A DNA stretch of 64,000 nucleotides from Phycisphaerales bacterium. Its GTDB lineage: Bacteria > Planctomycetota > Phycisphaerae > WQYP01. The first letter of the stretch is position 1. Every line of letters begins with the position of its first letter. Made by a program: the position numbers. Below, piece after piece: positions 48,001-64,000 of this stretch. The stretch lies in the NCBI GenBank assembly GCA_027451365.1, contig DAIDJN010000082.1:30278-94277 (forward strand), written 5' to 3'.

Positions 48001-51000
48001 AATCGAACGTTTTTTTCGAAGCCTGAAAGGCTGGGCGCGACTGGTTTTGTTTGGATTTTCCGCCACCGGCATCCAGCGCCGGCTGGATTGTTTCGCCGCT
48101 TGGTATAATGGCTGTCGTCCGCATAGCGCGATCAACGCTCGGACGCCGGAGGAAGCTTATAACCACAGGAAGTTGCCCAAAGCGGTAGCCTATCGTGCGC
48201 GGGACAAGCCCAATATTCAAATCGAGATCGCACGAAGACATTTTCGCGGCGATGTGCGACTTCCGATCGTCGAGATTAAGCTGCGCAAAGCCGCCTGAAC
48301 ATCGGCAAAAAGATGTTGTAAGAAAAGGCGCTGTTGTCGCATCCGCACAAACGGTGCGCGCCCAGCGACGATTTTTCATGCACCGCCGGGAGTTCACGAC
48401 TAAAGTGGCTCCACTTATCGCCATAAATCCATGTTACCCATCCGTTTGACAATCATCCAAACGTCCGTTATCATAAAAATTAGCAGTCTTACAATTCGCT
48501 GGGCCACCGCACAAGGCGGCATAAACGTCCGTAACTTTCCTTAGCCGAAGATGTTGCCATGCGCCGGCGCAGTTTCGAAGACCAAACTGTGCCACTTGTC
48601 GCCATAATTACACGTCATTCATCCGCTTGCCGATCGTCTGAAACCCCGTTCCCGTCAAGTTCAGTTCCAGTACAGTCCTTTGGGTCACTATACTGAAGAC
48701 ACTCGCTTATTCTTGCTGCCACTCGCCCAAGCCATTCCGAATATGTCATCCCATCCGCCTCTGGGAGATATTCACACCGTAGGTCATGTAGCATAATCTC
48801 ACGCACTTGCACCCCAGAGAAAGGCCTCGCAATAAACGCGACAATTTCGTCACGCAAGCGCCGGACGGATGTGGCTGGATTCATCGTCGCGTACGCCGCT
48901 GCCGCAGCGAGCGTGTCGGGGTAATCGGGGCATGTGATATCCCAATCTTGGTGATAACACAGTCCAAGGAACTGGTAGAGCTCTGGAAATTCGTCTCGTA
49001 TCATCTGAAATTCCTCATGGAATATAGGGATATCCGGTGAGAATCCTGTATCCCACGCTGGACGTCGGATCACGCAGCAGAAATACCTGCACACTTGTGG
49101 CAGACAGCTCCGACAATCCACCGCGCGGAATAGTAACCCCAATCTGGCGACCTACGTCGTAGGTCAAACCGAGACCCATGGCCTGTCCTCCAAGCCACGT
49201 TACGATCTCGCCCTGCCTTGCCTGCAGCGCAGCGGATATTGCGTCTTCGGCGGCCTGCCGATTGGGAAACGACGACGCACCGGAAATTCGCTGGTCCGTC
49301 CGAAGGCGCTGGAGCAGTTGGCCCTCGGTTTTGCCGACGTGTCGCTCAAGCAGATGTCCACCGAAATCTTCTTCATGGGCCAATAACCCTCCGCCTGGGG
49401 CAAGGTTGGTCTGGGCCACCCCTTCAGCCTGCGCCCACTCAACCAAGGCGTCGCGGCCCACGGAATTCATGTCGTCGAGCAGTGTGGCGAATGCCTCCGT
49501 TGGATTGCCGCCCGTGGAAATGAACGACTGCTCATACGCTTGCGGGTCAGATACGAAGCTGATCAGGTTAACCACAGCCAAAAGCCGTGTCGCGGCAACG
49601 AGCGCCTCGGGATATACCTGAATCTGTGTCGCAATTTCCAGGGAAAGATCGCTTAGCGCCGAGAGCGTTCCAGCGAGGGTAAAATAATGTCCACTTGGAT
49701 CCAGCATGTTGATTGGATCAGCGCCGGTGAAGGCGTAGGGCAGATCGGTCATTGGGTTCGCGAGCGAACCGCTGTAGCCGTAGTCGGATTGCGTGAACTC
49801 GCCGCTGCCGGAGTTGTAGAATCTTGCATGATCGTAGTAATTTCCGCTGGCCGCGTCGAACGGCATGGAACTATAGAGATATGTTGTCAACGCGGTGGCG
49901 GCGCTGAAGCCGAGGGCATTTCCAAATGCGTCATAGTTATAATGAGCCACGATGTTGCCGTTGGCATCGGCTATCAGCCGCGTGCTGCCGCGGGCATCCT
50001 GCAGCAGATAATACGTTGTCGGGCTACTGGCCGTTCCCACGCCGGGAATCGTGGCGCCGGTGCCATAGGTTTCGCTGATGAGTTGTGCGCCCCATACGTA
50101 GGTAACCTGCGGTATGCCGGGCGTGCTGGCCTGTTCAATGGGTTGGCTGTAACCCGTTGGATTATTGGCATCCACCAGATAATACGTGACCACCGGCGTG
50201 GTGCTGCCCGCGGCGGTTGTGACTTCTTCAATCCGATTCCCTGAATCGTCATAATAATACGTGGTGGTCGCCGTGCCGGCGGACGTCGTCACCTGCGAAC
50301 CGGCCAACTGCCCTTGCAGGTCATATTCATTGGTCGTGGTGGTGTCCGGCGTGGTTGTACCGTTGGGCGTGTGCGTGACGCTGGTTTGCGAACCGTTCGC
50401 GTCATAACCGTACACCGTCGTACCGGTATTGGTATCCACCGCCTTGGTCAGTTCATCGTCGGCGTTGTAGGTGGATGTAATTGTATCCGTCACCGTTCCG
50501 GTGGTGGACTCAACCGTTTCTGTAGTACGATTGGAGTCAAGATCATACCCATACGCATCAATATAGTTGAGCGCCGCCACATCGGCGGTATCGGTGGACG
50601 TTTCCTGCGCCAGCCGATCCAATCCGTCGTAAGTCCATGCCAAGGTGCGTGTGTCATTAACCGTGCCGTCGCTGTTGTAGGTTGTATCCGTCTCACCCGT
50701 CTTCAGGCCGTCAGCGCGATAAGTGTAGGAATACGTGGCAAAGGTTGTTCCGGCGGCATTCGTGACAGTTTCGGTCTGCACGTAATTGGTGTCGGGCTTA
50801 TAGGTGTACTTTGTCGTGATGCCGGTGGCGGAATCAAGTGTTGTTTCCAGTCTTCCGCCAAGGTCATAGCTGTAAACCGTGTTCGGCAGGTTTGTCGTGC
50901 TGGTGTTGCCTAGCGCATCATAGATTGTGCTGCTGGCTACCGCTGCTGGAGTTTGGCCATTTTCTTTCAGCACCGTTACGCTGGCGAGTTCACCCATATT

Positions 51001-63000: not shown

Positions 63001-64000
63001 GCCTTCCGGCAGGCCGGTGAAGATAGTCGTCGGCGGCGTGGCTGCGGAACTATTGTTGACGATAATGTCCAGCGGCGTGGTGTAGGCAATCGGGTTGATG
63101 GTGTTGATGGTCAAAGTACCGGCGAGGCTGGGGGCGTTATTGACCAAAAGTTGACCATAGCCCCCTTGACCGAAGGAGGGTCCGAATCCGGGATAACCAG
63201 AACTGGAGGCCTTGGTTTCATCCACGCCAATGGTTAGGTTGCCGGTGGCGGTCTGGGTGTAAACGCCGCTCATGAGGTTCAAAAACGTCCCGGCGGCGAT
63301 ACTGAGCGTTCCGCTGTTATTTAAGGCCACAGCGTAACTGCCGTACGACCCCATGCCCACGCCGCCAGTGCCGGTGATTTCCAGATTGCCAGCATTATTG
63401 AAAGCCAGGGGGCTGGTGTCGCCGGGATTTATCTGCGAAGGACCGTATCCGCCACTGGCGGTAATGACAAAAACACCACCCTTGGCGTTGTCAATCGTGG
63501 CACTGTTGTACATATTGATTGTGCCGGAACTACTGAGGTTCACCGTGCCGGAACTGTCCAATGCCACATTGGGTGTATTGGCGTTACCGAGACTTACCGA
63601 GCCGGTTATATTAAGAATTGCCGCATAATTGACGGCGATGGAGGCGTCTGCGACACCTCCGCTCCAGGTATTGCTGCCGCTTAGCGACACCGACCCCGTG
63701 CCGTCGATCGTTCCGCTGCTGAAATTCAGAGCATTGACATTGAGCGTATAGCCATTGGTCGCCAGCGTCGCGCCCTGCACCTCCACCTGACCGCCATTGA
63801 CGCTGGTCATGGTCGTGTTGCCGTCCAAGGTAAATGTCTCATTGCTGAAATTCAGCGTCCCGCCATCGACGGTAAACGCCGGAGCCGTATTGCTGGCGTT
63901 CGCATTCGTGCCGCCGGCATTGAGTTGCAATGTTCCGGCATCCACTTCCACCTGACCCGTGGATTGGTTGTTCAACGCCACCCCGCCGGTGCTACCGTAG

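Follow-up and report, generated by a model that had tools for sequence, protein, structure and literature searches.

We think it reasonably probable that an uncultured mine-drainage planctomycete (Phycisphaerae) carries, on a conjugative element, a giant Rhs toxin (6,841 residues or more), whose export is guided by its leader and carried out by the neighbouring module, and whose tip kills neighbouring bacteria. The window, that is, the whole stretch of 64,000 nucleotides that was analysed (G000:C82:30278-94277), holds the C-terminal part of the gene, its immunity gene and a block of conjugation genes.

One gene across two contig ends

The open reading frame in the window is open at its 5' end; read on the minus strand, it goes from 63999 to its stop codon at 49015-49017 and comprises 4,994 codons (49015..63999 including the stop). 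The N-terminal 1,885 codons lie outside the window on contig C68 (G000:C68:65612-71266, equal to L001:14346-20000). The last 115 nt of C68 match, exactly and in reverse complement, the terminal 115 nt of C82 (63886..64000 of the window, with no strand assigned); among the 88 contigs, these two ends have no other such partner. The reading frame is the same across this overlap, the final 38 residues of the C68 frame being the initial 38 of the window frame, and a direct join gives 1,885 + 4,994 - 38 = 6,841 residues. In a relative (G002), the ortholog is a single frame of 7,066 codons on one contig, directly after the equivalent module, with 93.7% identity to the part on C68 and 83.5% to the part in the window; the GTG start codon lines up with an ATG, that of 'MVQAKTK', both in G002 and in another relative, G001. 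The exact and unique overlap, the agreeing frames and the contiguous ortholog behind the same module therefore support the proposal of the initial annotation that a single gene for a giant Rhs/YD polymorphic toxin spans both contig ends. It might be objected that the ends come from different genes or strains and were joined by an assembly coincidence inside a shared repeat, as the overlap is shorter than the assembler word of 141 and lies within a repeat of higher depth, and as contigs of the X2-X4 runs differ from the window at ~1% of positions, which indicates that strains coexist. However, such a coincidence is very improbable given that G002 has both parts in the same order and in one frame, that the frames match through the overlap and that the segment occurs on no third contig of the assembly.

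The true length is a separate matter. The usual contig overlap of this assembly is 141 nt (34 of the 88 overlaps listed), and the 115-nt overlap is therefore not a graph edge; it falls within a tandem repeat unit of ~210 aa that has probably been collapsed. In Logan contigs from four runs, the depth of 63874-64000 is 16.1, 40, 23.9 and 40.8, against 5.33, 11.3, 7.99 and 9.06 for the adjoining unique part, so that in these independent contigs the junction repeat is 3-4.5 times deeper than its flank. Moreover, a 669-nt Logan contig carries identical 30 letters at both ends and is thus cyclic, repeating every 639 nt (213 codons); its extra letters were not found in the assembly. Relatives have two (G002) or three (G003) tandem copies at the junction, and the contigs of G001 break there. 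Because the junction lies inside a ~210-aa tandem repeat of excess depth, the 6,841 aa given initially, while correct as the arithmetic of a direct join, is a lower bound and probably too short; the Rhs protein is probably ~7,000-7,700 residues long.

Stalk, cage, tip and immunity protein

A scan of both pieces with Pfam and NCBIfam (E <= 0.01) bore out the domain layout described earlier, namely an Ig-type stalk, DUF6531, a YD shell with core and an RNase A-like tip, without PAAR or VgrG. Over both pieces, the stalk families are PKD_4 (four stretches), Calx-beta (2), He_PIG (17, where 16 had been counted), Big_9 and SpaA. The part of the stalk inside the window (54535..63999, minus strand) consists of beta-helix-type repeats of ~210 aa, two Calx-beta domains (residues 370-567 of the window frame; 62299..62892, minus strand), He_PIG/Big_9 Ig-like repeats, propeller-like stretches and a SpaA-like domain. 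It has one cysteine, and all 6,841 residues have two.

The Rhs cage occupies 49687..54534 on the minus strand. It is composed of a DUF6531 plug (residues 3156-3209; PF20148, 1.2e-07, above cut-off), YD/RHS repeats (PF05593, 4.4e-50, in 8 stretches rather than the 5 of the earlier count; TIGR01643, 1.2e-42) and the Rhs-associated core (TIGR03696 at 4689-4771, 37.5 bits against a cut-off of 32.5), the sequence of which ends in ...DPINMLDPSGH at residue 4771. The protein thus has the YD/RHS shell and DUF6531 plug of an Rhs/YD polymorphic toxin, and its core ends in a putative DPxG autoproteolysis motif. The tip of 223 aa (49018..49686, minus strand) is made up of a hydrophobic helical linker followed by an RNase A-like domain at 49027-49359 (RNAse_A_bac PF18431, 3e-25, residues 4881-4991 of the window frame; PDB 5e3e_B, 6.3e-23). 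The adjacent gene (48615..49004, minus strand), with its ATG ~10 nt past the toxin stop, encodes a CdiI_2-family immunity protein (PF18593, 1.4e-16; PDB 5e3e_A, 4.4e-05), as had been annotated. Tip and immunity protein match two chains of the single PDB entry 5E3E, of which chains B and A are presumably the CdiA-CT/CdiI pair of Yersinia kristensenii. The G002 body matches at 83.5% identity as far as the core, beyond which the tip is unrelated, i.e., swapped. A variable C-terminal toxin on a conserved body beside a predicted cognate immunity gene is the arrangement that these comparisons show.

Neither piece has a hit to PAAR, VgrG or any other spike-binding or type VI secretion system (T6SS) adaptor family (Pfam and NCBIfam, E <= 0.01), and a spike-binding N-terminal domain like that of T6SS Rhs effectors was not seen at this threshold. 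With Pfam, no TPS domain, FHA repeats or CdiB were found on the protein or adjoining genes, and only tip and immunity protein are of the CDI type that CdiA (type Vb) represents. T1SS_rpt_143 reaches only 24 bits on the protein, under its cut-off of 66, and the C-terminus is a toxin domain; the protein does not have the make-up of a type I secretion substrate. Across the assembly, TIGR03696 matches 39 places, 38 of which are in short ORFs of 165-687 aa that are at most 27-29% identical to the giant shell over its last ~150-390 residues. A tblastn search over the assembly found no second copy of the tip and no further long Rhs shell, in line with the earlier claim that this is the only full-length rhs gene; the other core ORFs are short and number 38 instead of 36.

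Leader, probable export module and conjugative element

The protein begins with a basic leader of ~66 residues (K+R 16 vs D+E 4 in residues 1-66) that ends in the motif RQGPVLEQLEQRIYMSS and has no hydrophobic segment, since no 15-residue stretch within residues 1-120 has a mean Kyte-Doolittle value above 0.77; the reported lack of a hydrophobic signal peptide therefore holds. The reference family for LEPR-type leaders is NCBIfam NF012209 (label LEPR-8K, cut-off 17 bits), whose product name we take to be LEPR-XLL leader. Two leaders of this genome pass it (C46, 29 bits; C81, 22 bits), but the N-terminus of the Rhs protein gave no match in the genome scan or with hmmscan even at E <= 10, and its motif has Q instead of P and IYM instead of xLL. 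The assignment made initially thus stands on alignment and not on the family model. The N-terminus aligns with the C46 and C81 leaders; in an alignment of 13 leaders (consensus RQGPVFExLExRxxLS) E71 and R73 are invariant; a paralog on C84 shows 59% identity over leader and first domain; and in G001 the same first 50 leader residues are followed by a canonical VEILEPRLLLS. Together these comparisons support RQGPVLEQLEQRIYMSS as a predicted variant of the LEPR-XLL leader, and the order of a basic stretch and then LExLExRxxLS, with no hydrophobic core and on a very large protein, is that of the family. As a regular expression, the motif has only 5 hits in the six frames of the 4.06-Mb genome, all at the N-termini of large ORFs, and three of the five adjoin an RRE-M50 gene.

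A domain scan of the upstream ORFs confirmed that the module lies directly upstream of the toxin gene, with genes for SecA, a PqqD+M50 protein, two HlyD proteins and an OEP; none of the 8 scanned ORFs upstream encodes an ABC transporter. The SecA has 643 aa, against the 1,245-aa frame of the other copy. The RRE-M50 protein of 731 aa combines PqqD and M50 domains with ~7 hydrophobic segments and a weak HlyD_3 tail (E 0.0098), and HExxH and an NPxxxxDG motif are invariant in 23 homologs. Its best NCBIfam match is the daptide leader metalloprotease NF041824 (6.4e-40, 137 bits vs a cut-off of 300). This gene content is that of the 'secondary SecA_DEAD' locus (Kamneva, Poudel and Ward 2015, PMC4452313), which likewise has a short SecA paralog, an M50-like/HlyD protein, more HlyD, sometimes an OEP, and no ABC transporter; in the parts of that paper used here, its role is 'completely unknown' and neither substrate nor leader is named. 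Unlike the locus as set out there, the module has a cargo, the Rhs toxin, encoded beside it, and the scan reported no GAF domain on its adaptors. Our literature searches yielded no paper linking LEPR-XLL leaders to Rhs toxins or to the module.

Several observations tie leader to module. The genome has a second module, a paralog on C81, within which LEPR genes lie. Among 301 Planctomycetota genomes, an RRE-M50 gene is present in 37 of the 39 that are NF012209-positive, compared with 80 of 301 overall, and a homolog is found in 43 of the 262 genomes without an NF012209 hit; in seven further genomes (G139, G105, G278, G296, G260, G161, G257), leader genes lie <=12 kb from RRE-M50. A complex model of leader and RRE-M50 protein reached an ipSAE of 0.67 (three runs 0.68, 0.66, 0.67) while the best of 3 controls had 0.00; in calibration of the tool, this mark was reached by 116 of 157 solved complexes and by 2 of 215 mismatched pairs. 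The score is based on small custom alignments (23 and 13 rows); the runs agree in >=76% of contacts, and partner pLDDT is >=58. The modelled interface joins leader residues 62-79, exactly the motif, to RRE 40-100 and M50 211-339, including H214, E215 and H218, setting the motif on the RRE strand and at the M50 zinc site. Solved structures exist for leader-RRE complexes of RiPP systems, and part of this pass may therefore be memory of the fold. The second module, the co-occurrence and the complex model together support the initial suggestion that the module, and not a T6SS, is the likely export route.

LEPR-like leaders are also found on giant Rhs ORFs in G099 (10,387 aa), G274 (9,080 aa) and G140 (4,419 aa), none of which adjoins the module, and on 8 among the 120 database homologs listed, one of them from a Stieleria strain in culture; 'tRNA nuclease WapA' is the annotation given to some of the database homologs. 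Of 13 other giant Rhs ORFs of planctomycetes in which the N-terminus can be read, 8 start with an ordinary hydrophobic signal, as judged by eye, so that the LEPR leader is one route among several.

Toxin and module are flanked on either side by conjugation genes. In the window they form a block on the minus strand (23909..45635) with TrbI/VirB10, CagX/VirB9, VirB8, TrbL/VirB6, VirB4-type and VirB11-type ATPases, the TraG/VirD4 coupling protein, DUF3363, DUF932 and SSB; the other flank has an integrase, an S24 repressor and a TraF-like peptidase. The families found (Phage_integrase, TrbI, CagX, VirB8, TrbL, VirB4-type, T2SSE, T4SS-DNA_transf, DUF3363) support the earlier proposal of a conjugative element; toxin, module and immunity gene are carried by what appears to be an integrative one. 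In G001 the same element and module have a different LEPR cargo, the mature part of which diverges from the motif onward; no Rhs shell was seen in its first ~1,600 residues, the part examined. Between the conjugation block and the immunity gene lie a SapC-family gene (45951..46964, plus strand; domain scan) and the DDE (rve) transposase of an insertion sequence (47054..48298, plus strand); a 471-aa ORF at 47009-48424 on the minus strand is an antisense shadow of the latter.

Mechanism, alternatives and significance

Going by the complex model, we propose that the RRE (PqqD-like) domain of the 731-aa RRE-M50-adaptor protein would bind the motif as an added beta-strand and that the intramembrane zinc site of the M50 part would cut near LEQR/IYM. 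Going by gene content, co-occurrence and adjacency, the shortened SecA paralog may supply ATP-driven pushing, and the M50 adaptor part, the two HlyD-type adaptors and the TolC-type channel may export the almost cysteine-free chain. Outside the cell, a run of Ig-like and beta-helix repeats ~5,000 residues long would hold out the Rhs cage, which, as in Rhs proteins that have been studied, would enclose the 223-residue tip until the DPxG autoprotease motif of the core frees it. On contact with a neighbouring bacterium, the RNase A-like tip behind its hydrophobic linker would enter and degrade RNA, whereas carriers of the element would be protected by the CdiI_2 protein, a role suggested by its family and pairing.

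It is conceivable, but rather unlikely, that the toxin leaves by another route (cell lysis, or type II secretion behind a Sec/Tat-type signal that went unrecognised), with the module serving other substrates and its adjacency being a by-product of a shared mobile element. This would fit the position of the LEPR-Rhs genes of G099, G274 and G140 away from the module, the RRE-M50 homologs of genomes without a leader hit, and a module role that is 'completely unknown' in the consulted parts of PMC4452313. Against it, however, the first 120 residues have no hydrophobic segment, both of the independent modules in this genome flank LEPR genes, co-occurrence is 37 of 39, and in the model it is precisely the conserved motif that occupies the RRE groove and the zinc site, while the controls score 0.00. 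We also consider it unlikely that the role is mainly selfish, with the giant surface protein a mating adhesin and the toxin-immunity pair a surveillance or addiction device that kills, on contact, neighbours lacking or losing the element. Some contact-dependent toxin systems are known to stabilise mobile islands; gene, module and immunity gene lie between the integrase, S24 repressor and TraF peptidase and a full T4SS with coupling protein, SSB and DUF932, and the G001 cargo suggests an exchangeable accessory. All molecular steps are nevertheless common to the selfish and the competitive reading, nothing separates the two, and only the target of selection differs.

Most of the Rhs toxins studied in Gram-negative bacteria are type VI effectors, and PAAR-Rhs effectors delivered in this way include RhsA of Pseudomonas protegens and Rhs1 of Photorhabdus laumondii. 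The giant protein shares with them the DUF6531 plug, YD shell, DPxG-ending core, exchangeable toxin and adjacent immunity gene, but not the N-terminus, which here is a LEPR-type leader; a VipB/TssC sheath gene is present on C41, and the 38 short Rhs-core ORFs may be T6SS cargo. Delivery of the Rhs toxin by type VI secretion is unlikely all the same, and that the protein is such an effector we regard as highly improbable: neither piece gave a hit to PAAR, VgrG or another T6SS adaptor family, the toxin gene lies on a different contig from the sheath gene and beside a SecA2/RRE-M50/HlyD/TolC module, and the short core ORFs are at most 27-29% identical to the shell. To our knowledge, no spike-loaded effector fits a ~5,000-residue stalk ahead of the cage.

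The toxin differs from other known systems as well. WapA of Bacillus subtilis is a Sec-exported, wall-bound Rhs toxin of contact-dependent inhibition with a classical signal peptide; like WapA, the giant Rhs protein would display its cage and nuclease tip on the cell surface independently of a T6SS, and both have an immunity gene downstream, but the giant protein is far longer, has no hydrophobic signal and belongs to a diderm envelope with a dedicated outer-membrane duct. With CdiA/CdiB (type Vb) it shares a long extracellular filament, a modular C-terminal toxin, the RNase A-like fold and the immunity family, but not TPS, FHA or CdiB, and its toxin sits within an Rhs cage. Giant repeat adhesins of type I secretion (LapA/LapBCE, SiiE, MpIBP) are likewise nearly cysteine-free Ig-repeat proteins encoded beside membrane-fusion and TolC genes; their signal is C-terminal, whereas here it is N-terminal and probably cleaved, and a SecA paralog and an intramembrane protease replace the ABC transporter. 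The fusion of a PqqD-like domain to an M50 HExxH protease and the modelled pairing of leader and RRE strands recall RiPP leader handling, although the 'peptide' would be the start of a ~7,000-residue protein, the protease has a periplasmic adaptor tail and NF041824 stays under its cut-off.

More tentatively, and with somewhat less than even confidence, we suggest that LEPR-XLL leaders and the RRE-M50/short-SecA/HlyD/TolC cassette form a distinct secretion system, with RiPP-type reading and intramembrane cutting of the leader, with Rhs cargo as part of a conjugative weapon unit, and with cargos that may include the largest Rhs toxins known in Planctomycetota. The split gene illustrates that complete toxin systems can go unseen when an assembly breaks up giant genes, and that stated lengths become minima where repeats collapse. 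Among bacterial weapons, Rhs toxins form a major class, and their known delivery is by type VI secretion, by Sec export with wall anchoring or in Tc complexes. If our reading is true, a leader-guided route via a SecA-paralog/M50/TolC machine would be a new trafficking mode for them, and the 'secondary SecA' locus would gain a concrete, assayable cargo, for which toxicity, immunity and leader cleavage would be simple read-outs. It would also mean that exporter, toxin and immunity travel as one unit on a conjugative element, as a T6SS-independent, horizontally transferable device for contact killing.

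One giant Rhs gene and a probably collapsed repeat

The C-terminal part of the giant Rhs gene lies on the minus strand, where an ORF of 4,994 codons, open at the window and contig end, runs from position 63999 to a stop at 49015-49017. Contig C68 and C82, the contig of the window, share an exact terminal overlap of 115 nt, the end of one being the reverse complement of the end of the other, and this segment occurs in no third contig among the 88 of the assembly. Because the final 38 residues of the ORF at the end of C68 (L001:14304-20000) are also the first 38 of the window ORF, the two frames agree, and a direct join from the GTG at C68:65612 gives 1,885 + 4,994 - 38 = 6,841 residues. 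The order, orientation and continuity of both parts can be seen in one molecule, since the relative G002, whose RRE-M50 protein (a protease fused to a PqqD-like recognition domain, RRE) is 95% identical to that of the source assembly G000, has a single frame of 7,066 codons on one 46,679-nt contig, directly after genes for SecA2 (minus), RRE-M50 (minus), two HlyD proteins and TolC. The C68 piece matches residues 25-1914 of that ORF at 93.7% identity and the window piece residues 2088-6930 at 83.5%. A search of metagenome contigs with an exact 63-nt pattern from the overlap gave no match, and hence no independent contig over the junction.

At the junction, G002 has one unit of ~206 aa more than the direct join, and blastn self-comparison revealed two 563-nt copies there, 96.3% identical and 618 nt apart; Tandem Repeats Finder, limited to periods up to 500 nt, returned 0 rows. 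In G003, another relative, three copies stand at 630-nt spacing in the same place, and in a third, G001, the contigs break at the repeat. Contigs of G000 usually overlap by 141 nt (34 overlaps), so the 115-nt overlap is not an assembly-graph edge; it is what would be expected of two contigs that both end within a common segment of ~167 nt. In Logan contigs of four mine-drainage runs, the depth of 63874-64000 is 16.1, 40, 23.9 and 40.8, compared with 5.33, 11.3, 7.99 and 9.06 for neighbouring unique sequence. One 669-nt Logan contig begins and ends with the same 30 letters and is thus a cycle of 639 nt (213 codons), which contains the 63874-64000 segment, another 297 letters and a variant of 63662-63873. 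The assembly has none of four loose-end consensus strings of the Logan contigs, even when up to four substitutions are allowed, so the bin lacks this additional repeat sequence. A continuation of C68 as the cyclic contig of run X2 was rejected (40/67 and 30/44 mismatches, no better than shifted controls).

The simplest reading of the junction is a collapsed tandem array. We estimate one to four further 213-codon units and, assuming that their frame is open, a true length of roughly 7,000-7,700 residues. Thus, the single gene proposed by the initial annotation is well supported by the overlap, the frames and the contiguous ortholog of G002, and the join is real in kind, but repeat depth and the relatives' copies suggest that 6,841 residues is probably not the true length of the product.

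A LEPR-type leader and its cargo

In G002 and G001, the codon aligned with the GTG at C68:65612, annotated earlier as the start, is the ATG of MVQAKTK, and internal Met codons are not conserved. The region behind the GTG was described as a LEPR-XLL leader without a hydrophobic signal peptide. It does lack a hydrophobic core and is strongly basic (16 K+R vs 4 D+E in 66 residues), but family membership by curated model fails, because NF012209 (LEPR-8K), which scores above cut-off on two other N-termini of G000 (on C46 and C81), does not match the N-terminus of the Rhs protein even with the E limit raised to 10. Homology with LEPR leaders nevertheless looks clear from the sequences, given this basic charge, the conserved start and three further points. 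The motif of the Rhs N-terminus (...RFGRLQRQGPVLEQLEQRIYMSS) aligns with those on C84 (...RQGPVFEQLEQRIYMSS), C46 (...GLVFEQLEPRIMLSS) and C81 (...RQGPVFEKLEERIMLSA); the consensus of 13 aligned leaders is RQGPVFExLExRxxLS, with E71 and R73 invariant. A motif regex has only five matches in six frames of the whole G000 genome (only matches followed by an ORF of 80 residues or more were counted), all at the N-termini of large ORFs. Finally, the G001 gene at the corresponding position (L006:4717-5010, minus), in the same element and beside the same module with a 99% identical RRE-M50 protein, keeps the first 50 leader residues, continues with the canonical VEILEPRLLLS and then encodes a different mature protein. 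This switch suggests that recombination within the leader exchanges cargo. A paralog of 1,980 codons on C84 (L004, leader at 113790, minus) resembles the Rhs protein in its leader and first ~300 residues (59% identity) but lacks a shell; the N-terminal domain of these two recurs in the LEPR protein of C81 (42-46%).

The Rhs shell was matched in 20 of the 301 Planctomycetota genomes. Another 13 giant Rhs ORFs were judged by eye at their N-termini, a count that leaves out G005, G280 and one truncated ORF as ambiguous, as well as ORFs running off contig starts and those no longer than about 1,000 aa (802-1,023 aa). LEPR-like leaders occur in G099 (10,387 aa, ...VDRLEDRTLLT), G274 (9,080 aa, ...VESLEERLLLS) and G140 (4,419 aa, ...YEPLERRVMLS); 8/13 have an ordinary hydrophobic signal and 2/13 neither type. 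A database search with the shell yielded 546 proteins, the best 120 of which (2,746-8,740 aa; 111 begin with M) include at least eight with a LEPR-like leader (four by regex, four by eye; two other regex matches were rejected as false), 33 with a hydrophobic N-terminus and 47 with a different conserved N-terminus of type MVAVISGNGLGL. One LEPR-Rhs protein, WP_145217584.1, is encoded by a cultured Stieleria strain. From these counts, LEPR-led Rhs proteins form a recurrent minority that includes the longest in the phylum sample, and Rhs cargo behind a LEPR-type leader is, judged by its N-termini, not a one-off.

Two side observations concern these ORFs. In the one-contig genome of G005 (L061/L072, G005:C1:2014364-2030214), a LEPR-led ORF of 1,979 codons overlaps a 3,337-codon Rhs ORF by ~100 nt in a different frame, an arrangement that may have arisen by a frameshift in a LEPR-Rhs gene, by an error of sequencing or by deliberate frameshifting. 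The group of 47 among the 120 listed homologs (within P0006-P0121) consists of giant LysM-Rhs proteins, from named sources including Dyella, Ramlibacter and Luteibacter, and their conserved non-hydrophobic N-terminus of type MVAVISGNGLGLGNTSL looks like another export tag.

The adjoining module and the conjugative element

On C68, a tyrosine integrase, an S24/HTH repressor and a TraF-like S26 peptidase stand upstream of the module, which comprises a 643-aa SecA paralog (SecA2), a 731-aa PqqD(RRE)+M50 protein, two HlyD-type adaptors and a TolC-type protein, whose gene ends 353 nt before the Rhs start. In the M50 protein, HExxH and NPxxxxDG are invariant among 23 homologs; it contains some seven hydrophobic segments, its tail matches HlyD_3 weakly, and its closest curated family is the daptide leader metalloprotease (6.4e-40, under cut-off). 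The module has the same gene set as the 'secondary SecA_DEAD' locus of Kamneva et al. 2015 (PMC4452313), for which, in the text available to us, a secretion role is proposed and the substrate is not named.

Downstream of the toxin, the window holds an rve-type IS transposase beyond the immunity gene (47054-48298, plus), a SapC-family gene (45951-46964, plus) 1.7 kb beyond the immunity gene, and genes for SSB, DUF932, DUF3363, a TraG/VirD4 coupling protein, a VirB11-type ATPase and homologs of VirB4, VirB6, VirB8, VirB9 and VirB10. With the integrase side upstream and conjugation genes downstream, the toxin locus lies inside an integrative conjugative element, as had been annotated. In G002, too, this IS lies behind the toxin locus (L024:2770-4053, minus). 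A 471-aa ORF at 47009-48424 (minus) was rejected as a gene; it has no family and is an antisense shadow of the transposase.

A second, chromosomal module of G000, on C81 (RRE-M50 74% and SecA2 65% identical to the first), has two LEPR genes between its HlyD/TolC and RRE-M50/SecA2 genes, one for a protein of 1,098 aa and one a small ORF, so that three of the five leader genes of G000 adjoin its two modules. Behind the small ORF (137 aa) comes a 167-aa F5/8 type C ORF (L003:10384-11417), and the two look, from their sequence, like one gene broken by a frameshift or stop. Of eight related loci fetched with 10-kb flanks, six (L006, L007, L009-L012) hold a LEPR-type ORF; the others are a 3.2-kb contig and a distant locus, L013, where no leader was found and just 1.4 kb is present on one side. 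Across 301 evenly sampled Planctomycetota genomes, among which kin are not independent, an RRE-M50 homolog was detected in 80 (E <= 1e-20) and NF012209 over cut-off in 39; 37 of the 39 have both, the exceptions being G195 and G205, with weak hits. Leader and RRE-M50 genes lie within 12 kb of each other in G139, G105, G278, G296, G260, G161 and G257.

A model of RRE-M50 residues 1-430 with leader residues 1-96, built with our own small alignments, reached an ipSAE of 0.67 (runs 0.68, 0.66 and 0.67) against 0.00 in the best of three controls. In the tool's calibration, 116 of 157 solved complexes attain this mark, as do 2 of 215 mismatched pairs. The runs have 76% or more of their contacts in common, and partner pLDDT is at least 58. 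The confident interface comprises leader residues 62-79, exactly RQGPVLEQLEQRIYMSSL, residues 40-100 on the RRE side (tightest pairs 48-52 with 67-70) and residues 211-339 on the protease side, including H214, E215 and H218. Leader residues 73-74 adjoin 252-257 and 326 in the model, which suggests cleavage close to R73. The model thus favors binding of the leader by RRE-M50, without showing it; leader-RRE complexes are present among solved structures.

The exchangeable toxin tip and its possible route

Pfam and NCBIfam profiles on both pieces gave the families of the initial annotation: four PKD stretches on the C68 piece and, on the window piece, a stalk of two Calx-beta, He_PIG in 17 stretches (previously 16), Big_9 and a SpaA-like domain, followed by DUF6531 (residues 3156-3209), RHS_repeat in eight stretches (previously five), the Rhs-associated core (4689-4771, ending in DPINMLDPSGH) and RNAse_A_bac (4881-4991, 3e-25). 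The first 351 residues of the protein have no Pfam match at E <= 1, and the 6,841 residues contain two cysteines. The tip behind the core has 223 residues, and the next gene encodes a CdiI_2 immunity protein (48615-49004, minus; 1.4e-16). Because the tip matches chain B (6.3e-23) and the immunity protein chain A (4.4e-05) of one PDB entry, 5E3E, they represent a cognate-type pair, in agreement with their earlier assignment. Between G000 and G002, the body is conserved as far as the core, the tip is unrelated and the next small ORF also differs; neither the G002 tip nor its 130-aa downstream ORF has a Pfam match at E <= 1. Such a tip swap, as read from the two sequences, is a hallmark of polymorphic toxins.

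The sole strongly hydrophobic window of the protein lies directly behind the core. A similar hydrophobic helix (F-T/S-L-x-E-V/L...) right after the core DPSG was seen in six (C-termini of P0001, P0016, P0020, P0075, P0079 and P0116) of eight LEPR-Rhs proteins inspected, these eight being the window's own and seven database homologs. The toxin domains behind it are unrelated to one another, and the helix may be a common membrane-entry or cage-plug element.

Delivery of the giant protein by a T6SS has in its favor a VipB/TssC sheath gene elsewhere in the genome (C41:79537-80445). However, that is a different locus, and spike-binding domains are absent from the protein: Pfam and NCBIfam found no PAAR or VgrG, as had been noted, so that the case for this route is weak. 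They found no TPS or RTX families either. The gene also keeps its place as the only full-length rhs gene, since tblastn over the assembly found neither a second long shell nor a second tip copy; 38 further Rhs-core matches, without a long shell, lie in ORFs of 165-687 aa on 26 other contigs (for example C67:17116-17307, C30:59552-59746 and C56:41125-41382) and could be orphan tips from a different system or else small cargo of the T6SS.

We favor export through the adjoining module. For a gene whose unity, domains, toxin-immunity pair, tip exchange, leader kinship, module composition and mobile context can be read from the DNA, we infer that RRE-M50 would recognise and cleave the leader, that ATP-driven export would proceed via the adaptor/TolC duct, that the stalk would display the Rhs cage on the cell surface, and that the tip, freed by autoproteolysis inside the cage, would be delivered as an RNase contact-dependently into neighbours without the immunity gene. 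The same mechanics would serve a selfish role as well as a competitive one, the toxin-immunity pair then policing maintenance of the element.

The toxin belongs to a known class and has a known kind of tip, and the immunity family and the module's set of genes are likewise known. An Rhs cage with a LEPR-type leader beside an ABC-less SecA2/RRE-M50/HlyD/TolC set as one transferable unit is absent from the main texts of the searchable literature, although the supporting tables of Kamneva et al. 2015 may list such cargo neighbours. The portions available of a giant-gene preprint (10.1101/2023.11.21.568195), of Zhang et al. 2012 (PMC3482391) and of a tripartite-pump review (PMC8277102) contain nothing on the leader or the route.
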